Assembly (NCBI GenBank): GCA_020061305.1
Contig: JAGUYM010000014.1
Location: 117,920-181,919, forward strand
DNA from: Candidatus Woesebacteria bacterium
GTDB taxonomy: Bacteria > Patescibacteriota > Microgenomatia > UBA8517
Direction: 5' to 3'
Length of the DNA stretch: 64,000 nt
Made by a program: the position numbers and the translations under genes. The notes under the pieces were generated by a model. It saw nothing but the letters and a program-made list of their open reading frames with translations, did not search any database and had not been told where the DNA came from. Shown piece after piece: positions 13,028 through 26,025 of the stretch (position 1 is the first letter of the stretch; every line of letters begins with the position of its first letter).

Positions 13028-15319
13028 ATGAAAAGAATAGAAAAGAAATTAGAAATAGGCGGCAAAATACTGACACTTACAACCGGAGAGTTAGCAGAAC
13101 AAGCAGCCTCTGCCGTGACGGCAAGAATTGGTGATACTGTTGTGCTTGCAACTGTTGCAGTTTCTGATTTAAAGCAGGAATTAGACTATTTTCCTTTAAC
13201 AATTGATTATCAGGAGAGACTTTATGCTGGTGGAAGAATAAAGGGCTCAAGATGGGTTAAAAGAGAAGGAAGACCGACGGATGAAGAAATACTTTCAGGA
13301 AGATTAATTGATAGATCAATTCGACCACTTTTCCCCAAAACCTACAAAAAAGAAGTTCAAATAATTATTACGGTTCTTTCTGTTGATATGGAAAATGATC
13401 CTGCAATTGTCGGCGCCTTGGCCGCATCTGCCGCTGTTCATACAACCACACTTCCATGGAAAGGTCCTGTTTCTACATTTAGAGTTGGTTTTGTAGATGA
13501 AAAATATATATTAAATCCAGTAAATAGTGAAATCGAAACTTCTAAGATGGATTTGGTGGTTTCTTCGACAAAAGAGGCGGTTTTAATGGTTGAGGCAGGA
13601 GCAAACGAGGCAACAGAAGAAGAGATATTAAAGGGGATTAGTTTTGCCTTTGACGAAAGTAAAAGTGTATTAAAACTAATTGAGGAGTTTGCAAATGAAG
13701 TTGGTGTTGTTAGGGATGTATATAAAGTAGAAAAGGCTTCTCCTGAAATTGAAAAACAAGTCAAAGAACTAGTTAAGGACAGGATTCCGTCGTTGGTTAA
13801 AAATATGGCACTTCATGAAGGACATTCTTCAGAATATTCTGAATTTGTTGCAGGAATCCAAGATAAATTTGAGACAGAAGACGAAAAGAAACAAGTTGTT
13901 GATGTAATTGAACATCTTAAAAAAGATCATATCAGAGAGCAAATTCTTAAAAAAGGCATCAGGCCAGATGGTAGAAAACTAACTGAAATAAGAAAGCTTT
14001 CGGCCCAAGTTGGATATTTGCCTAGAGTTCATGGTTCAGGTCTTTTCAAAAGAGGTCAAACACAAGTGCTTTCAGTTTTAACGCTTGCTGCAACATCTCA
14101 AAGTTTGCTTTTAGAGTCGGCAGAAGGAGAAGATGAAAAGCGCTATATCCATCACTACTCAATGCCCCCTTATGCAACTGGTGAAACCGGCAGAGTTGGG
14201 AGTCCTGGAAGAAGAGAAATAGGTCATGGTGCCTTAGCCGAAAGATCACTTGTTCCTGTAATTCCAGACGAGAAAGATTTTCCTTACACAATTAGAGTTG
14301 TTTCAGAAGTGATGAGCAGTAATGGTTCAACTTCAATGGCATCTGTTTGTGGGTCAACATTGGCTTTAATGGATGCGGGTGTTCCAATTTTAGCTCCTGT
14401 TTCAGGAATTGCAATGGGCTTAATCATAGAATCAGATGATAGCTACGCAATTCTTTCAGACATCATGGGCATTGAGGACTTTAATGGCGACATGGATTTT
14501 AAAGTTGCTGGAACATCAAAAGGAATTACAGCACTTCAGCTTGATGTTAAAACATTAAACCTAACTCCAAAAATTCTTGAAGAAGCTTTAGAGCAGGCTA
14601 AAAAAGGTAGGGCAGAAATATTAAAAGTTATGACAGATACTATTTCAGAGTCTAGAAAAGAGGTTAATGCTTTTGCTCCAAAAATTAAGGTAGTAATGAT
14701 TCCTGTCGATAAAATAGGTGAACTTATTGGCCCTTCTGGCAAAAATATAAAGAAATTAGCTGCTGACACTGGGGCTCAAATTGATGTTGAAGATGACGGC
14801 TCTGTTTCAATATCTGCAGTTGATCCGGCATCGATGGAGAAAGCCGTTGCTTATGTGGAGGGAATGATCAAAGAGGTTCAGGTGGGAGAGATTTATGAAG
14901 GTGAAGTAGTTAGGCTTCTTAATTTTGGAGCATTTGTAAACATTTTGCCAGGTAAAGATGGTATGGTTCATGTATCGGATATGGGCAAAGATGGTTATGT
15001 AAATGATGCTTCAGATGTGTTGTCAATTGGTCAAAAAGTAACTGTTAGAGTAAAAAAGATAGATGAAATGAAAAGGATTAGCTTGTCACTCAATCTTGAC
15101 CCAGCAATGGATGAAAAAGTAGAAAGTTTAAAAAGAGATAGAAATGGTGGGGGGGGTGGATATTCAAGAGGACCAAGGCGAGATTTTAATGGGAGAAGTG
15201 GTGGAGGAAGAGGATTTTCAAGAGATAGAGGAGGAGACAAGAGAAATTTTAGCCGACCATCTGGTCCACATTTTCCAACCAGTCGTTACTTCCAAACTGA
15301 CACAAGCCCTGATAGATAA
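13028..15319 (+). CDS. pnp: polynucleotide phosphorylase (PNPase) with an Arg/Gly-rich C-terminal tail
   Basis: two RNase PH domains, KH (IGELIGPSGKNIK) and S1 domains; extra C-terminal RGG/RG-rich ~60 aa. Confidence 0.95.
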   Translation: MKRIEKKLEIGGKILTLTTGELAEQAASAVTARIGDTVVLATVAVSDLKQELDYFPLTIDYQERLYAGGRIKGSRWVKREGRPTDEEILSGRLIDRSIRPLFPKTYKKEVQIIITVLSVDMENDPAIVGALAASAAVHTTTLPWKGPVSTFRVGFVDEKYILNPVNSEIETSKMDLVVSSTKEAVLMVEAGANEATEEEILKGISFAFDESKSVLKLIEEFANEVGVVRDVYKVEKASPEIEKQVKELVKDRIPSLVKNMALHEGHSSEYSEFVAGIQDKFETEDEKKQVVDVIEHLKKDHIREQILKKGIRPDGRKLTEIRKLSAQVGYLPRVHGSGLFKRGQTQVLSVLTLAATSQSLLLESAEGEDEKRYIHHYSMPPYATGETGRVGSPGRREIGHGALAERSLVPVIPDEKDFPYTIRVVSEVMSSNGSTSMASVCGSTLALMDAGVPILAPVSGIAMGLIIESDDSYAILSDIMGIEDFNGDMDFKVAGTSKGITALQLDVKTLNLTPKILEEALEQAKKGRAEILKVMTDTISESRKEVNAFAPKIKVVMIPVDKIGELIGPSGKNIKKLAADTGAQIDVEDDGSVSISAVDPASMEKAVAYVEGMIKEVQVGEIYEGEVVRLLNFGAFVNILPGKDGMVHVSDMGKDGYVNDASDVLSIGQKVTVRVKKIDEMKRISLSLNLDPAMDEKVESLKRDRNGGGGGYSRGPRRDFNGRSGGGRGFSRDRGGDKRNFSRPSGPHFPTSRYFQTDTSPDR

Positions 15320-15471
15320 CATTTAGTTTTTAGTAAAAAGTTATATAATAACCCATATTATGGTTGAAGGCGAATGTAGGTTAACGGATGATTGTATCTC
15401 AATTTTTAGCTGATCGTTGTAGTCTCTTATAATATTTTTAAATTTCAACAATTCAATGCTACAATTAAATT

Positions 15472-16521
15472 ATGAATGATACTGCCTTTAATGAGATAAA
15501 TGTTCTTGGTGAAAAAATTAAAAATTCAACTGTTCCAGAAGAATTAAAAAATTCTGTACAAATAAGACTTGATCAATTAAAAAAATTAACAAATTCTCCT
15601 ACATTTTTACCGGAATATGACAGAATGAATAAATATATAGATTGGATTACGGCTTTACCATGGGAGAAAAAATCACAAGATAATCTTGATTTGGAAAATG
15701 CCAAAAAAATTTTGGACGAACATCATTTCGGGCTTGAAGATATTAAAAATAGGATTATTGAATATCTTGCTGTCATGAAGCTAAAACAAGAAAAAGGTGA
15801 GGGTCAGGATGTCTATCGTGCCCCCATCCTTTGTTTTGTGGGTTTGGTTGGAACTGGAAAAACTACAATTGCCTATTCTATAGCTGGGGCGTTGGGAAGA
15901 AAGATTGCTCGTATCCCATTTGGGGGTATGGGTGATCCGTTGGATTTGAGAGGTCAAAGTAGAATGCATGCAGAAGCAGAACCTGGGAAAATTATTAAAG
16001 CACTTCGTGACACCGGTTATAGAAATTCTGTCATACTTCTTGATGAAATAGACAGAGTAACAGATCAGGGAAGAGCTTCAATTATGGGTGTCTTGGTTGA
16101 ACTTTTAGATCCAGGTCAAAATCATGCTTTTACTGATCATTATATTGATTATCCAGTAAACCTTTCTGAATGTATTTTTATAGCAACTGCAAATAATACA
16201 ACAAATATTTCAACTGCAGTAATGGACAGAATAGAACCAATTATGATGCCTTCTTATACCGATCAAGAAAAAATAACTATTGGTAAAAAATATGTGTTTC
16301 CAAAAGCTTTGAAGGCTTCCGGTCTGCCAATGGATACCATTACTGTTGATGATGAAGTTTGGGTAAATTTAGTTAGGCCATTAGGTTATGATGCAGGAAT
16401 TAGAACGATGGAAAGAACAATCGGTGGGATGGTCCGTAAAGTTGCCAGAATGGTAGTTGAGGGTAAAGGAACCCACTTTGCCATAACTCAACAAAATGTT
16501 AAAGAATTTTTACCACAATAA
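15472..16521 (+). CDS. Lon-like AAA+ ATPase module with no N-terminal LON domain and no S16 protease domain
   Basis: YIDWITALPWEKKSQDNLDLENAKKILDEHHFGLEDIKNRIIEYLAV and PILCFVGLVGTGKTT (Walker A), VILLDEIDR (Walker B), ATANN sensor, MDRIE align along the Lon A-domain; the ORF ends exactly where the protease domain would begin; flanking genes leave no room for the missing domains. Confidence 0.7.
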   Translation: MNDTAFNEINVLGEKIKNSTVPEELKNSVQIRLDQLKKLTNSPTFLPEYDRMNKYIDWITALPWEKKSQDNLDLENAKKILDEHHFGLEDIKNRIIEYLAVMKLKQEKGEGQDVYRAPILCFVGLVGTGKTTIAYSIAGALGRKIARIPFGGMGDPLDLRGQSRMHAEAEPGKIIKALRDTGYRNSVILLDEIDRVTDQGRASIMGVLVELLDPGQNHAFTDHYIDYPVNLSECIFIATANNTTNISTAVMDRIEPIMMPSYTDQEKITIGKKYVFPKALKASGLPMDTITVDDEVWVNLVRPLGYDAGIRTMERTIGGMVRKVARMVVEGKGTHFAITQQNVKEFLPQ

Positions 16522-16535
16522 TATAAAATTATTTC

Positions 16536-16994
16536 ATGAAGATAGTTGTTATTGGCGATACACATGATAATATCCAAAACATTAGACATGTGATGGGGTT
16601 TTCAGAAAAAATTAAGGCAGAGGCGGTAATTCATACTGGAGATTGGAGTAATTTAAAAACATACAAAGAAATTAAAAGTTACAAAATTAAAACATATGGA
16701 GTGTTAGGTAATGCAGACATTTCGTCTGAGATAAAAAGTAAACTCGATGAGTTTTTGGAACTAGAAATAGATAATTTAAAAATTGGCCTGATTCATAATA
16801 TTAAAAAATTAAAATTGATTGAAAATTGGAAATTTAAAATTGAAAATTTGGACATAGTTTTTTGCGGCCATGAGCACAAACAATACCAAAAAAATAAATT
16901 TATTAATCCAGGAAGCCTCGAGAATGATATTAATTTTGCAATTTTCGATACAAAAACAAAAAGAGTAGAATTCATCAACAATGACAAAATTTGA
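16536..16994 (+). CDS. small calcineurin-like metallophosphoesterase (YfcE/MJ0936 family)
   Basis: IGDTHDN, GDW, GNAD, GHEH metal-binding motifs in a 152-aa protein. Confidence 0.7.
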   Translation: MKIVVIGDTHDNIQNIRHVMGFSEKIKAEAVIHTGDWSNLKTYKEIKSYKIKTYGVLGNADISSEIKSKLDEFLELEIDNLKIGLIHNIKKLKLIENWKFKIENLDIVFCGHEHKQYQKNKFINPGSLENDINFAIFDTKTKRVEFINNDKI

Positions 16995-17541
16995 AGAACT
17001 TCACAAACTTAAAGATTTGATGGAAAAAGATGACTCATTACCCTTAAAAGGGGTGGCCAATAAATTAGTTTTTGGGTCGGGGAATACTGAAGCAAAAATA
17101 TTATGCATAGGTGAGGGTCCCGGAAGACAAGAAGATATAGAAGGTTTACCATTTGTAGGTCAGGCTGGAAAACTTTTGGACAAGCTTTTGCTTTTAGCTG
17201 GAGTTGAAAGAAAAAAAGTATTTATCACAAATGTTGTTCATCATAGACCACCAAATAATCGCGATCCGCTTCCCGACGAAATATCTGCATACGGAAAATA
17301 TTTAGACCAAATTATTGAGATAATTAAGCCAAAAATAATTATAACTTTAGGTAGGTTTTCTATGAATAAGTTTTTACCAGATGTGTTTATTTCTCAAGCT
17401 CACGGCAAAAGTTTTAAAATTGGAAAAATTATAGTTATTCCTATGTATCACCCCGCAGCAAGTTTAAGAAACGGCAAAATACTTGAATTAGAAAAAATGG
17501 ATTTTCAAAATTTAAAAAAAATATTGGGGAAGATAATCTGA
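16981..17541 (+). CDS. uracil-DNA glycosylase, family 4
   Basis: GEGPG...E...GLPFVGQAGKLL motif and C-terminal HPAA motif. Confidence 0.8.
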   Translation: MTKFEELHKLKDLMEKDDSLPLKGVANKLVFGSGNTEAKILCIGEGPGRQEDIEGLPFVGQAGKLLDKLLLLAGVERKKVFITNVVHHRPPNNRDPLPDEISAYGKYLDQIIEIIKPKIIITLGRFSMNKFLPDVFISQAHGKSFKIGKIIVIPMYHPAASLRNGKILELEKMDFQNLKKILGKII

Positions 17542-17643: not shown

Positions 17644-19290
17644 ATGTTACGCTTCATAGCTCTTTCAGGAACAATTGGTGTTACCGAGAACTTAAATGTT
17701 TATGAAACAGAAAAAGATTTAATTCTTTTAGACTGCGGTATAGGCTTCCCCGATTTGGAAATGCCCGGGGTTGATCTTGTTATTCCCGATTTTTCATATG
17801 TGGTTAAAAATAAACACAAGCTAAAAGCTATTGTACTTTCTCAAGGTCATGAAGATCATATAGGCTCTTTACCGTTTTTATTTAGGAGTGTTAATGCTCC
17901 CATTTACTGTGCGCCGTTGGTTTCTGAATTTGTAAAACTTAAATTTGATGATTACGGAGTTAAAAATTATACAATAAATGTTTTTAATCCTGAAAACACT
18001 GTGGTCAAAATTGGAGACTTTGCGTTTTATCCCTTTAGAGTCGCCCATTCTGTTCCTGATACCTGTGGATTTTTAGTTGAACACCCGGAAGGTAGATTTA
18101 TGCATGTTCCTGAACACAAAATTGATCAAAAATCAGTTGATGGCATGCCATTTGATTTGATTCGAGCAAGAGAACTTGCCAAAAGAGGTAAAATTGACTG
18201 CCTTATTTCTGATTGCTTGGGAGCAAATAATCCAGGGTTTGCACCAGATTCAGTGGCAATTGAGGAAAATATTTATAAAATTGCCAAGGATGCAAAACAG
18301 GCGATTTACATGACAGCTATGTCATCAGCAATTGGTAGGTTTCAACAAATGATAAATGTTGCGGGTAGGTTAAATAGAAAAGTTGTTTTAATTGGAAGGT
18401 CTATTCAGGAAAAAGTTAATGCTGCACATCTTCTTGGATATATCAAATTTTTACCAAACCAAGTAATTGATTATAAAAAAGCAAGCAAAATGTCTCCGAG
18501 CCATTTAGTTTATATTGTTGCGGGTTGTTATGGTCAGGTAGGAAGTTCTGTTTATAGGATTGCAACGGATGTAGATAATAGATTAACTGTTGTTGAGGGT
18601 GATACATTTGTTTTTTCAGCAAACCCCGCGCCCCCCTATAGTAAAGAAAGTCAGGATTTTGTAATAGATGAATTAGTAGATAAAGGTGTTGATGTTCATT
18701 ACTACGATTTAAACGAAGGGCTTCATGTTTCGGGTCATGGTTACAAAGAAGACATAAAAATGCTTTTTGACATTGCAAAACCCTCATGTTTTATTCCTAC
18801 GGGAGGAACTATAAAACATATGCATTCATATGAAAAATTAGTAATTGAAACTGGGAGGAAAAAAGATCAAGTTTTCAAACTAAAACCAGGTGAATCTGTT
18901 GAATTTACAAATGGTAAAGCAAGAAGGGGTCAAAAGGTAAGGGTTAAAGAAGTAATGGTTCATGGTCTTGGCATTGGAGATATAGGGAAAACTGTATTAG
19001 AACATAGAACTTTACTTGGCAAAGAAGGAATGGTTGTTGTTGCTATCAAGGCGTCAAAAAAAGGAAGGGTTTTGTCAAAACCACAAATTGTTACAAGGGG
19101 ATTTGTTTTTGAGGGAATTTCAAGCGGTCTTTTGAATGATGCGGTTCAAAGACTTTCCAAATATTTAAATACTTTAAGAAATACAGATTCCAAAAAATTA
19201 AAACAAGAGACCATAAAATATCTGGAGGCCCATTTTTATCAAACTACTGGTCGCTCTCCAATGATAATCCCGATTGTGGTTGAAGTATAG
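17644..19290 (+). CDS. rnj: ribonuclease J (metallo-beta-lactamase/beta-CASP)
   Basis: LLDCGIGFPD, SQGHEDHIGSLPF motifs, beta-CASP and C-terminal domain. Confidence 0.85.
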   Translation: MLRFIALSGTIGVTENLNVYETEKDLILLDCGIGFPDLEMPGVDLVIPDFSYVVKNKHKLKAIVLSQGHEDHIGSLPFLFRSVNAPIYCAPLVSEFVKLKFDDYGVKNYTINVFNPENTVVKIGDFAFYPFRVAHSVPDTCGFLVEHPEGRFMHVPEHKIDQKSVDGMPFDLIRARELAKRGKIDCLISDCLGANNPGFAPDSVAIEENIYKIAKDAKQAIYMTAMSSAIGRFQQMINVAGRLNRKVVLIGRSIQEKVNAAHLLGYIKFLPNQVIDYKKASKMSPSHLVYIVAGCYGQVGSSVYRIATDVDNRLTVVEGDTFVFSANPAPPYSKESQDFVIDELVDKGVDVHYYDLNEGLHVSGHGYKEDIKMLFDIAKPSCFIPTGGTIKHMHSYEKLVIETGRKKDQVFKLKPGESVEFTNGKARRGQKVRVKEVMVHGLGIGDIGKTVLEHRTLLGKEGMVVVAIKASKKGRVLSKPQIVTRGFVFEGISSGLLNDAVQRLSKYLNTLRNTDSKKLKQETIKYLEAHFYQTTGRSPMIIPIVVEV

Positions 19291-22325: not shown

Positions 22326-24026
22326 ATGATTACTAGTGATCAGGTTAGAGAAAAGTATTTAAAGTTTTTTGAAAAGAGGGGGCATAAGATTATTAACCCT
22401 GCTCCATTAGTTCTTGAAAATGATCCAACCACACTGTTTACAAGTTCTGGCATGCAACCGCTTGTCCCCTACCTAATGGGAGAACCTCATAACGACGGGA
22501 AAAGGTTAGTTGATAGCCAACCCGCAATAAGACTTCAGGACATTGATGAAGTTGGTGACAATCGCCACACAACATATTTTAAAATGCTGGGTAATTGGAG
22601 TTTGGGTGATTATTTTAAAAAAGAACAACTTTCATGGATTTGGGAATTTTTAACTAAGGAATTAAGATTGCCAAAAGAAAAATTATATGTTTCTGTTTTT
22701 GAGGGTGATGGTTTGGTTCCTAAAGATTTAGAATCTAAAAGAATATGGCTTGATTTGGGAGTTGGTGAAAATCAAATTTTTGAGTATGGAGTAAAAAAGA
22801 ACTGGTGGAGTAGAAGTGGGACTCCTTCCCAAATGCCAGTTGGTGAAATTGGAGGGCCAGATAGTGAAATATTTTTTGATTTTGGTGATGACTTAAAACT
22901 TCATGAAAATTCGCAGTGGAAAGATGAAGTTTGCCACCCAAATTGTGACTGTGGTAGATTTTTAGAGATTGGTAATTCAGTTTTTATCCAATATAAAAAA
23001 ACTGACATGGGATTGGAAGAACTTCCCCAGAGAAATGTTGATTTTGGAGGTGGACTTGAAAGAATAACTGCAGCTTTAAACAACGATCCTGATATGTTTA
23101 AAACTGATATCTACTGGCCAACAATTGAAAAATTAGAAAAAATAACTGGCAAACAGTATGATGATCAGAGAAAAAATTTCAGAATAATTGCAGATCACTT
23201 GAGAGCTTCAGAAGCTTTAATTAAAGACGGACTGGTGCCTTCAAATAAAATGCATGGTTATGTTTTAAGAAGACTAATTAGAAGAATTGCAACAAAAATA
23301 GATGACTTTGAAAAAATAACTGACAATAGAGTAATTATAGAAGAACTTAAGAAATTTAAAGTAAGTTTAGATAAAGGACTAAAAGAAATTTCAAAAGTTG
23401 AAAAAATCACAGGTAAGATTGCATTTAATTTATACCAGTCATATGGTTTTCCGCTTGAACTGACAGTTGAACTTTTCAGAGAAAAAGGCCAAGAAGTCAA
23501 TTTAGAAGAATTTAGAAAAGAATTTGAAGGGCACAAAGAAAAATCCCGCTCGCTTTCATCTGGGGTATTTAAAGGTGGGCTTGCTGATCATTCTCCAGAA
23601 GTAGTTAAATTACATACCGCTACACATTTACTTTTGGCCTCTTTAAGAAAAGTATTAGGTCCTCATGTTATACAAAAGGGACAAAATATAATCAAAGAGA
23701 GGTGTAGATTTGACTTTCCTCACACGCAAAAGTTAGATCAAGTTCAGCTTAAAGAAGTTGAGGATATGGTAAACAATGTTATTAAAAGGGGTCTACCAGT
23801 CAGTTATAAAGTAATGCCTAAAGATGAAGCTATTAAAACCGGTGCTATCCATGCTTTTAACGAAAAATATGCTGATACGGTAAAGGTTTATACTATTGGT
23901 GATTTCAGTAACGAATTTTGCGGTGGGCCGCATGTTGAAAATACAAAAGAGATTGGTCATGTTACAATTAAGAAGCAAGAGAAAATAGGTAGTGGAATAA
24001 TTAGAATTTATGCTGTCCTTACTTAA
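22326..24026 (+). CDS. alaS: alanine--tRNA ligase, short form (catalytic core + editing-domain zinc motifs, no C-Ala domain)
   Basis: N-term [34 protein letters not shown]; editing-type HTATHLL and CGGPHV motifs near the C-terminus; 566 aa. Confidence 0.8.
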   Translation: [566 protein letters not shown]

Positions 24027-26025
24027 CAAAAAGCCAGAAAAAAAAGAAAATTATTGGGCCATCTTGATTGAAAGTAATTGGGTGGCTTCTGCAATATGGG
24101 AAATTGAAAACGGAATTGTAAAAACTATAGCTGTTTCTGAAACAGTAAGATTTGAAGACAATCTCGTTCAGGCCGTTGATACAGCGCTTTCTAGTTGCGT
24201 ACAAAAAATTGACGAAAAGATTCCCGAACCTGAAAAAACGGTTTTTGGACTTCCATCTTCATGGACTACAAACGGCGAAATTACCAGCGAAAATTTAGAA
24301 AAGTTAAAAAAGGTCTGCGAGGGTTTGTCGCTTGTGCCATCAGGGTTTGTGGTTTTAGCTGATGCTCTTGCCCACTATCTTAAAAATGAAGAGCAAGTTC
24401 CATTTAGCGGAGCACTTTTAGGAATTAGTGATGACACTTTAGATTTCTCGATTTTTAACCTGGGTAAGGTCACTAATTCTACAAATATTTCAAGAAGCGT
24501 GTCAGTTGCTGACGATTTAGTTGAAGGGTTGTCTAGATTTGGTCTTGATTCATCAAATCTACCATCGAGAATTATTTTATATAACCAAAAAGAAACAGAA
24601 CTCGAGGAGATTCAAAACGAACTTAATAGTTCTGATTGGCAAAATTTTGATACTGTTAAATTTATTCATCCCCCCAAAATTGAGATCTTAAACTCTGAAA
24701 AAAAGATACTTGCAGTTTGTCTTGCGGGGGGTGTTGAGTTGGGAGATGTTTCAGGCATTGAAACAGAAAATGCAGTTGAAGAGGATATAAATATAGCTCC
24801 TCCTGACACATCCATCGCCAAAGACTTGGGCTTCGAAGAAATTGAGGTTGGTCAAAAATCTAAAATTGAATTGTCAAAAATAAATGTTCCAAAGATTAAC
24901 ATGCCGAAGATAAATTTTAAATTACCACGGTTAAATGGTAAACCCGTAGTTATAGGCGTGGTATCCTTTGCCACCTTTTTAACTGCCGGTTTTATAATGT
25001 GGTGGTTTTTGCCAAAAGCTGGTGTTACGGTCTATGTTTTACCCAAAAAATTAGAAGAAATGATATCTATTGATTTATCAAAAGACTTAGAAAGTAAAGA
25101 AATAAATGTTAGTGTTGAAGGAGAAAAAACAAAATCTACAACAGGTATAAAAACTGTAGGTGAAAAAGCAAAGGGAAAAGTTGAAATAAGAAATTCTATG
25201 GGTATTCCCGTTGACTTGCCTTCTGGAACTGTTTTGACATCGTCCTCAAATTTAAAATTCACAACAGCTCAATCAAGCTCCGTTTCTGGCCAAGTTTTGG
25301 TCGGGTCTCCTGGTAAATCCGAAGTTGATGTTGAGGCGTCGTCAATTGGTTCGGAATATAATTTATCAAAAGATGAGGTTTTTAAGGTCGGAAGTTACCC
25401 CCAGTATGAATTGGCGGCATTTTCATTGGATAATTTTTCAGGTGGAACAAGCAGGCAAATATCTGCGGTATCTGAAGAAGACAGAGAGGTGTTATTAAAA
25501 CAGTTGGAGGACGAATTGATGGACTTGGCAAAAGAAAAATTAAAAGAAAGATTGAATTCAAAGGAAATGATGGTTGAATCTACACTAACTAAAGAAAATA
25601 TAAATGAAGGCTTCAGCAACAAAGTGGGAGACGAGGCAACGAGTTTGAGATTGTCGTTAAAGTTTGAAGTCAAAGTAAAAATTGTATCATCTGAAAAACT
25701 AGCCGAAATTGCTAAAAACACTTTAGAAATGAAAATACCCGAAGGCTTTATATTAAGAAATGATCAAATATCATACGATTTTGAAGGACTGGAAAAAGAT
25801 AGTAGATTAGAAGCGAGAGTTTCAGCCAATCTTTTACCTGATATTGATACATCTGAAATTGCAAAAAAAATTTCCGGAAAATATCCAGAGATTGCCGAAG
25901 AATATTTAAAAAGCGTGCCGGGGTATGTAAGGGCACAGTTTAGGTTTAAACCACTACCTGGAAAACTTGGAACACTTCCCCATGTTCCAAAAAATATTTC
26001 AGTTGGGTTATCTGCTGAGAAGTGA
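24010..26025 (+). CDS. membrane protein with a PilM/FtsA-like actin-fold N-domain, one TM and a large extracytoplasmic C-domain
   Basis: N-terminus MLSLLNKKPEKKENYWAILIESNWVASAIWEIENGIVKTIAVSE resembles the PilM N-terminus; TM VVIGVVSFATFLTAGFIMWWF; translationally coupled (ATGA) to the sortase gene. Confidence 0.4.
   Translation: MLSLLNKKPEKKENYWAILIESNWVASAIWEIENGIVKTIAVSETVRFEDNLVQAVDTALSSCVQKIDEKIPEPEKTVFGLPSSWTTNGEITSENLEKLKKVCEGLSLVPSGFVVLADALAHYLKNEEQVPFSGALLGISDDTLDFSIFNLGKVTNSTNISRSVSVADDLVEGLSRFGLDSSNLPSRIILYNQKETELEEIQNELNSSDWQNFDTVKFIHPPKIEILNSEKKILAVCLAGGVELGDVSGIETENAVEEDINIAPPDTSIAKDLGFEEIEVGQKSKIELSKINVPKINMPKINFKLPRLNGKPVVIGVVSFATFLTAGFIMWWFLPKAGVTVYVLPKKLEEMISIDLSKDLESKEINVSVEGEKTKSTTGIKTVGEKAKGKVEIRNSMGIPVDLPSGTVLTSSSNLKFTTAQSSSVSGQVLVGSPGKSEVDVEASSIGSEYNLSKDEVFKVGSYPQYELAAFSLDNFSGGTSRQISAVSEEDREVLLKQLEDELMDLAKEKLKERLNSKEMMVESTLTKENINEGFSNKVGDEATSLRLSLKFEVKVKIVSSEKLAEIAKNTLEMKIPEGFILRNDQISYDFEGLEKDSRLEARVSANLLPDIDTSEIAKKISGKYPEIAEEYLKSVPGYVRAQFRFKPLPGKLGTLPHVPKNISVGLSAEK

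Follow-up and report, generated by a model that had tools for sequence, protein, structure and literature searches.

In the field's definition, each Lon chain carries a P domain behind its A domain, and LonA, LonB, LonC and LonBA are all proteases (PMC9569914). In the LonA of Meiothermus taiwanensis (MtaLonA), Tyr397 of pore loop 1 and Trp431 of pore loop 2 contact the translocating substrate and are needed for degradation (PMC8503904). The fragment EcLon(235-584) of Escherichia coli Lon crystallizes as an open hexameric spiral, and the NB domain and HI(CC) region of LonA have been compared with ClpB (PMC6722904). Here, we analyse a 64-kb stretch of DNA from a Candidatus Woesebacteria bacterium (64,000 nt of contig JAGUYM010000014.1, hereafter the window), in which the gene following pnp encodes a 349-aa protein that we call Lon-AAA. 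This protein is a genuine LonA-derived stand-alone ATPase, and it should not be classed with the Lon proteases. Of four defining features of LonA that we tested, it lacks three (the P and N domains and canonical pore loops) and keeps the A-type AAA+ module. In the literature that we searched, neither a protease-less Lon nor any Lon in the candidate phyla radiation (CPR) is described. The gene and its elements, in window coordinates, are the following:

15472..16521, plus strand: stand-alone LonA-type AAA+ ATPase (Lon-AAA), 349 aa (open reading frame (ORF) call, Pfam, NCBIfam, structure alignments, AlphaFold2 model); domain layout, NTD3H three-helix bundle at aa ~1-107, NB alpha/beta domain at aa ~115-260 and H/lid domain at aa ~264-340
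15841..15864, plus strand: Walker A, GLVGTGKT, aa 124-131 (GL[VA]GTGKT near-invariant in 81 sequences, with one T128A exception)
15949..15987, plus strand: remodelled pore loop 1, RGQSRMHAEAEPG, aa 160-172 (aligned to 3m6a and 4ypl; family logo; contrast with canonical Lons)
16036..16080, plus strand: Walker B, LLDEID, aa 189-194, and pore-loop-2 region, RVTDQGRAS, aa 195-203 (structure alignments, family alignment)
16180..16236, plus strand: sensor-1, ATANN (N241/N242), and arginine finger, MDRIE (R253) (N241, N242 and R253 invariant in 81 sequences)
16390..16416, plus strand: sensor-2 region, DAGIRTMER (R311) (R311 in 80/80 sequences that cover the column; the 81st, L020, ends before it)

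Pfam recognizes an AAA domain (E-value of 1.1e-16) and a Lon_lid domain (1.2e-08) in Lon-AAA and nothing else; neither LON_substr_bdg (PF02190) nor Lon_C is matched in the protein. The NCBIfam model TIGR00763 ('lon') aligns over its positions 255-570 of 795 with an E-value of 6e-97 and 326 bits, against a cut-off of 608, and no Pfam or NCBIfam model is specific to the Lon-AAA family. Searching solved structures gave a collinear, unbroken alignment with LonA residues ~243-579, and Bacillus subtilis Lon (3m6a) was matched at 3.5e-76. An AlphaFold2 monomer model built from a 23-sequence family alignment reached a predicted local distance difference test score (pLDDT) of 89.8 and a predicted template modelling score (pTM) of 0.82. 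With this model as a query, Foldseek returned Lon chains only, with E-values of 1e-27 to 1e-32 to LonA and LONP1 chains, and the best end-to-end fold match was 6n2i, i.e., E. coli Lon 235-584 (TM 0.87/0.90, root mean square deviation of 2.4 Å). A sequence-only reading of this DNA had described the protein as collinear with Lon from the helices that precede the AAA+ domain to the end of the lid, and had suggested a structure prediction; profiles, structure alignments and the AlphaFold2 model all bear out the collinearity, and the Lon AAA+ fold is retained in the predicted monomer. Membership of another AAA+ clade was rejected, since the NCBIfam models for RFC, CbbX and ClpA score 1e-6 or worse, far behind the lon model, and the top folds all belong to Lon.

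The domains that flank this module in LonA were searched for with custom hidden Markov models (HMMs) of the Lon N-region and of the S16 domain, both built from 33 full-length Lons. The search space comprised the six frames of the whole window and ±10 kb at 80 related loci. Across the window and these loci, the best E-value was 0.31 for the N-region and 0.37 for S16, whereas held-out full-length Lon controls scored 1e-32 to 1e-67 and 1e-43 to 1e-87, respectively. Around the divergent stand-alone members, too, neither domain was found. The distance from the pnp stop to the Lon-AAA start is 152 nt, and together with the null N-region search this agrees with the earlier statement that, with pnp ~150 bp away, no Lon N-domain can be encoded nearby. 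The search for Lon_C and LON_substr_bdg in all frames that had been proposed is negative for the window and the 80 related loci, with positive controls. Likewise, no frameshift-corrected reading yields a protease domain downstream, since there is no S16 signal in any frame and the position of the stop codon is conserved.

The motifs GLVGTGKT, ILLDEID, ATANN and MDRIE, previously listed as intact from the letters of the sequence, are all found in Lon-AAA. Across the 81 family sequences, Walker B reads LLDE[IL]D and is (near-)invariant, as are the other catalytic elements listed above. The residues required for ATP binding and hydrolysis, the trans-acting arginine finger among them, are maintained throughout the Lon-AAA clade. 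The conservation of an arginine finger acting in trans implies a ring or spiral oligomer, and such an assembly may be expected because, in addition, the equivalent E. coli fragment packs as a hexameric spiral.

Lon-AAA departs from LonA in its pore loops, a change that was absent from the sequence-only reading. The segment RGQSRMHAEAEPG occupies the place of the pore-loop-1 motif of solved Lons, RGHRRTY[IV]G[AS]MPG. Its His166-Ala167 stand at the canonical Tyr-[Ile/Val] position, and Gly200 stands at the F/W/M position of pore loop 2. In the 81 family sequences, residue 166 is His in 42 cases, Phe in 23, Tyr in six and another residue in 10, residue 168 is Asp or Glu, and E170 is invariant; this acidic E168/E170 signature is specific to the clade. 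We read the pore loops in every AAA module of 150 representatives retrieved by an exhaustive search. Among the canonical N-AAA-S16 Lons (n=74, 40 of them listed), all 40 listed proteins carry RGHR[RK]TY[IV]G[AS][MLI]PG and keep the aromatic residue of pore loop 2. Pore loop 1 is remodelled in 18 of the 19 single-module stand-alone representatives, mostly to ...[DE]AEPG, the exception (P0186 in our numbering) resembling a fragment of a canonical Lon. At the former Tyr position, the stand-alone representatives vary freely (R, H, F, S, E, Q, N, D, K). The positions of MtaLonA Tyr397 and Trp431 are exactly those altered in Lon-AAA. The canonical gripping and threading residues of Lon have been replaced in this clade by an acidic, clade-specific loop, [D/E]-A-E-P-G.

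The 346-353-aa form of Lon-AAA is present in more than 120 database clusters and in 80 species genomes. Each of the 120 best-matching database clusters has a length of 348-349 aa and an identity of 73-100%, and they come from Microgenomates and Patescibacteria. These proteins are already in the databases, mislabelled and uncharacterised, under names that vary between 'Lon protease', 'ATP-dependent Lon protease' and 'AAA family ATPase'. A scan of species-representative genomes gave 80 Lon-AAA loci with 52-88% identity, including Woesebacteria, Levybacteria, Gottesmanbacteria and Cerribacteria, and in every complete locus the reading frame terminates only a few codons from where the lid ends. 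Lon-AAA is present in every sampled Microgenomates lineage and in a few more distant relatives; the distribution of the truncated form in CPR, which the sequence-only reading had left to be checked, is clade-wide across the Microgenomates lineages sampled.

We compared codons with six close relatives, using the same genome pairs for PNPase and RNase J. Nonsynonymous divergence (dN) of Lon-AAA is 0.08-0.14, with saturated synonymous divergence (dS), about half of that measured for PNPase (0.17-0.27) and RNase J (0.21-0.35). Lon-AAA is the most constrained gene of the block and is under strong purifying selection. Because its length and stop position are conserved, remnant domains are missing and its dN is low, Lon-AAA is a real constrained gene. 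A sequencing or assembly artefact, a frameshifted or truncated Lon, or a pseudogene was rejected, since length and stop are kept in the >120 clusters and 80 genomes and no protease remnant occurs in any frame. Nothing but the unusual architecture of Lon-AAA speaks for an artefact or a decaying Lon remnant; with purifying selection stronger than on PNPase and with invariant catalytic motifs, we regard the probability of this as negligible.

In a neighbour-joining tree of AAA modules, all 31 stand-alone sequences group in one clade (bootstrap 156/200). On average they share 41% identity with canonical Lon and 51% with one another, the lowest value inside the clade being 31%. Since all stand-alone modules form a single clade, the loss of the N and P domains was one old event, coupled with the exchange of the threading residues for the acidic loop, and Lon-AAA derives from the LonA ATPase, probably by vertical inheritance. 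An origin by recent truncation of a full-length Lon in the same lineage was rejected, since the nearest full-length Lons, from Negativicutes and Deinococcus, are only ~43-44% identical and the stand-alone forms are monophyletic.

Some stand-alone members are longer than the common form. P0141 (669 aa, L082 6844-8853), P0126, P0130 and P0145 have N-terminal extensions of 100-320 aa, and P0168 continues for ~196 aa at its C-terminus, with no resemblance to S16. We rejected these extensions as hidden Lon domains, since they give no Pfam or custom-HMM signal; they could be novel domains or result from mis-called start codons. Another architecture was observed outside the window, in 27 of the 150 nearest representatives (P0121-P0125, P0127, P0129, P0131-P0138 and others): these proteins of 890-1675 aa contain two or three tandem Lon AAA+ modules ahead of one S16 domain, without a Lon N-domain, and within one chain the modules have different pore loops. 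One of them comes from Candidatus Dependentiae and others are encoded on contigs of 1.1-5.3 Mb. We know of no description of such tandem 'type-II-like' Lons. They were rejected as partners or parents of Lon-AAA, since they belong to other lineages, such as Dependentiae, and fall outside the stand-alone clade.

Upstream of Lon-AAA, a promoter-like sequence, TTTAAA-17-TACAAT with an extended TG, is located at 15437-15471 and ends 6 nt before the ATG, and an obvious Shine-Dalgarno sequence is absent from Lon-AAA as well as from the two genes that follow it. This combination might point to a leaderless Lon-AAA transcript. A promoter scan of the region found 23 promoter-like sites, compared with 24.1 expected from shuffled sequence, i.e., no excess, and the intergenic gaps of the region contain no Rfam family and no tRNA.

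The genes that surround Lon-AAA in the window and that matter for its interpretation are the following:

13028..15319, plus strand: PNPase (pnp), conserved upstream neighbour, with a basic, RG-rich C-terminal tail containing the motif SGPHFPTSRYF (context)
16536..16994, plus strand: YfcE/MJ0936-type metallophosphodiesterase, 152 aa (Pfam Metallophos_2 at 3.8e-25; TIGR00040 at 69.9 bits, cut-off 56.25)
16981..17541, plus strand: family-4 uracil-DNA glycosylase (UDG), 186 aa (TIGR00758 at 169.4 bits, cut-off 125.3; Pfam UDG)
17644..19290, plus strand: RNase J, conserved downstream neighbour (context)

The backbone of the window consists of dnaK-dnaJ, nusA-infB-orf298-rpsO-pnp, Lon-AAA and the genes for RNase J, FtsK and a HTH protein, followed by alaS, ruvX and mltG. 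The order nusA-infB-rpsO-pnp...RNase J-FtsK is conserved across the clade, with ~20 kb (nusA to alaS) syntenic. Downstream neighbours were counted in the 65 loci with at least 3.5 kb of downstream sequence and upstream neighbours in the 66 loci in which the upstream flank is long enough. In 64/65 loci RNase J is found no more than 4.5 kb downstream, and in 31/65 it directly abuts Lon-AAA; pnp lies within 3.5 kb upstream in 51/66. UDG is present in 30/65 loci and YfcE in 15/65, and the trio of Lon-AAA, YfcE and UDG in 15/65. Among the more divergent members, P0141 (49% identical) is located after pnp, and P0169 (41%) has RNase J as its next downstream gene. P0160 (40%) maps to the rpsO-pnp...FtsK region, which in this case contains inserted genes unrelated to the backbone and has no RNase J. 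P0168, P0153 and P0229 are found in unrelated contexts, without adjoining RNase J or pnp. The association of Lon-AAA with pnp and RNase J is thus broad but inseparable from inherited synteny.

Two further observations concern this gene order. P0168 and P0153 each have, one or two genes away, a protein with Big_5 and Peptidase_C39_2 domains (L085 9481-10674, L086 4406-5599, L088 2450-4477); this shared neighbour could reflect simple synteny if the two belong to one sub-lineage. In the window, a 671-aa ORF at 24010-26025, between alaS and a sortase gene, gives a weak Baseplate_J-like Pfam match (1.5e-05), and its position is conserved in many related loci.

The C-terminal tail of the window PNPase is encoded at 15120-15319 (aa ~695-763). 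In all 65 readable loci, the PNPase orthologues have a basic tail of 25-95 aa, often RG-rich, with a net charge of +4 to +13. The tail contains a conserved short motif, which is SGPHFP[TA]SR[YLF] in loci of the Woesebacteria type and HPL[STA]xQF[RK]RER in those of the Levybacteria type, and which resembles a linear interaction motif embedded in a disordered region.

The two genes that follow Lon-AAA in the window were identified as the sequence-only reading had proposed, both above curated cut-offs. The gap between Lon-AAA and YfcE is 14 nt, rather than the 15 previously given, and the 14-nt overlap between YfcE and UDG is confirmed. The YfcE homologue keeps the metal-ligand motifs of MJ0936 (2ahd/1s3l), DxH, GD, GN, H and GHxH, which read DTHD, GD, GNAD and GHEH. 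In the UDG, motif A (GE[GA]PG) reads GEGPG and motif B (HPAA/HPS) reads HPAA, and 36 of 37 orthologues retain these motifs. Family-4 UDGs typically hold a [4Fe-4S] cluster with four Cys ligands. The window UDG contains a single Cys, and the four cluster-binding Cys of 4zbx/1ui0 are missing in the alignment, with His88 (VKCRPP -> VHHRPP) and Tyr104 at aligned Cys positions. The 37 Microgenomates orthologues have zero to three Cys each, so that, judging from these alignments, they look like a family-4 lineage free of the Fe-S cluster.

On balance, with a slight lean only, we favour the reading of Lon-AAA as a ring-forming, non-proteolytic, Lon-derived ATPase that acts on specific, possibly basic clients. 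It would assemble like the AAA+ ring of Lon and would spend ATP on non-destructive work, such as remodelling, holding or releasing a specific client. This client would most plausibly be a positively charged protein segment engaged by the acidic axial loops, which would favour such segments and disfavour nucleic acid, and Lon-AAA would probably not be a general unfoldase that feeds a peptidase. Several points weigh against this. Oligomerisation, ATPase activity and client are predictions for Lon-AAA, and the basic client is deduced solely from the charge of the loop. Phe or Tyr is kept at the Tyr position in about a third of the Microgenomates members (F23 and Y6 of 81), which may preserve some threading ability, and His can also stack. 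Moreover, the stability of LonA hexamers owes much to the protease ring, which is missing in Lon-AAA. Finally, the absence of S16 holds for the window and for ±10 kb at the loci, and a protease encoded elsewhere might act in trans.

The last point bears on the possibility that the Lon-AAA ring docks in trans on a separately encoded S16 domain, or on another self-compartmentalised peptidase, to form an ATP-dependent protease. The end of the AAA+ module, which is otherwise intact, coincides exactly with the P-domain boundary of LonA, and the architecture of the Lon family is plastic, as illustrated by the tandem AAA-AAA-S16 forms. We nevertheless consider such a pairing unlikely, given that no S16-like sequence occurs in the 64-kb window, within ±10 kb in 80 genomes or around the divergent members, and that the loss of conservation of the pore-loop-1 Tyr and pore-loop-2 aromatic is unexpected for a motor threading its substrate into a chamber. 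We also found no precedent in the literature, the described Lons all being single chains with A and P domains (PMC9569914). The sequence-only reading had envisaged either an unfoldase or a partner of a separate protease; the unconserved pore-loop Tyr and aromatic weaken this. The gene order suggests another role, in which Lon-AAA would work with PNPase and RNase J, remodelling ribonucleoproteins or engaging the PNPase tail, in the manner of the DEAD-box helicase of other degradosomes. The recurrence of pnp upstream and RNase J downstream, an RNase J adjacency that reappears in a member only 41% identical (P0169), the basic, motif-bearing PNPase tail in 65/65 readable loci and the acidic nature of the clade-specific pore loop all agree with it. 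However, with ~20 kb in synteny the adjacency may simply be inherited gene order, four members (P0160, P0168, P0153 and P0229) lack a neighbouring RNase J and the last three of them also pnp, the physical interaction is a conjecture, and an acidic pore speaks against direct translocation of RNA, so that we find this role improbable as well. In its most specific form, the acidic axial loops of Lon-AAA would engage basic disordered tails, with the RG-rich tail of PNPase as the prime candidate, and Lon-AAA would power a minimal RNA-decay assembly of PNPase and RNase J in these reduced genomes; this link between a basic tail and an acidic pore is speculation and, in our estimate, a long shot.

The compact arrangement of Lon-AAA, YfcE and UDG had also been taken as a sign of co-expression and of a nucleic-acid-processing module, and could be read as a DNA-repair unit. 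The 14-nt gap and 14-nt overlap, with no terminator-like site between the genes, fit such a unit, and canonical Lon can bind DNA (PMC11719849). The comparison of loci speaks against it: YfcE and UDG are found in 15/65 and 30/65 loci only, close relatives often have 300-970 nt of other sequence between Lon-AAA and YfcE, and other lineages have UDG (at a gap of -8 to 22 nt) or RNase J (-1 to ~60 nt) directly behind Lon-AAA. YfcE, with a dN of 0.27-0.46, evolves three to four times faster than Lon-AAA, the segment matching the lysine DNA-binding patch of Lon is mixed or acidic in Lon-AAA on inspection of the sequence, and no profile of a defence or repair system is matched. Since the trio occurs in so few loci, the YfcE/UDG association is local to one Woesebacteria sub-lineage and probably represents compact co-directional packing rather than a conserved functional module. 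A joint unit of the three genes is largely refuted by the absence of conserved linkage, and we hold it to be very improbable.

Beyond this locus, a whole bacterial lineage has a Lon that lacks both protease and recognition domain; its ATPase is better conserved than PNPase, and its gripping loops have been rewritten with the acidic signature of the clade. The labels 'Lon protease' and 'ATP-dependent Lon protease' are misleading, and metabolic reconstructions of Microgenomates should not count Lon-AAA as a protease. Whether Lon has chaperone-like roles that do not depend on proteolysis has been under discussion for a long time. If Lon-AAA is an active ring ATPase, it would represent a natural experiment on the Lon motor without proteolysis, and it would offer a handle on proteostasis, and possibly on the organisation of RNA decay, in the ultra-small CPR bacteria, the biology of which is largely unknown.

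Among known systems, Lon-AAA resembles LonA (E. coli, B. subtilis and M. taiwanensis Lon and human LONP1; MEROPS S16), with which it shares, at 36-44% identity, an A-type AAA+ module with an NTD3H bundle and a Lon lid, the same Walker A, Walker B, sensor-1, arginine-finger and sensor-2 positions and the same fold (TM up to 0.87). Unlike LonA, it has no N-terminal substrate-binding domain, long helix, NTD5H or S16 Ser-Lys protease domain; it carries x[H/F/..][P/A][D/E]AEPG instead of TY[IV]G[AS]MPG, and Gly or Ala instead of the pore-loop-2 aromatic. Its boundaries are near-identical to those of EcLon(235-584) in 6n2i (the C-terminal part of HI(CC), NB and H); the latter is a laboratory fragment with canonical pore loops, whereas Lon-AAA is a natural, independently evolving product with remodelled loops. 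BrxL of BREX phage defence is likewise reported as a Lon-related AAA+ protein used beyond classical proteolysis (PMC10164562). BrxL is larger, DNA-binding, chambered and located in defence islands, whereas Lon-AAA lies in a housekeeping backbone. A BrxL-like defence ATPase was rejected, since PADLOC gives no BrxL match and only weak generic AAA matches (DolB, 3.2e-10), and the neighbours are housekeeping genes. With ClpX acting without ClpP, and with ClpB, Lon-AAA would share the concept of an AAA+ ring that is related to protease motors and performs non-degradative remodelling; these Clp/Hsp100 remodellers belong to another AAA+ clade and retain aromatic pore loops, and the ClpA model matches Lon-AAA only at 8e-4. 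LonC (M. taiwanensis LonC, MEROPS S16.007) is, like Lon-AAA, a Lon derivative that has lost one of the two activities (PMC9569914). LonC keeps the protease, with a degenerate, inactive ATPase; Lon-AAA appears to be its mirror image, in which the protease is gone and the ATPase, judged by its motifs, is intact.

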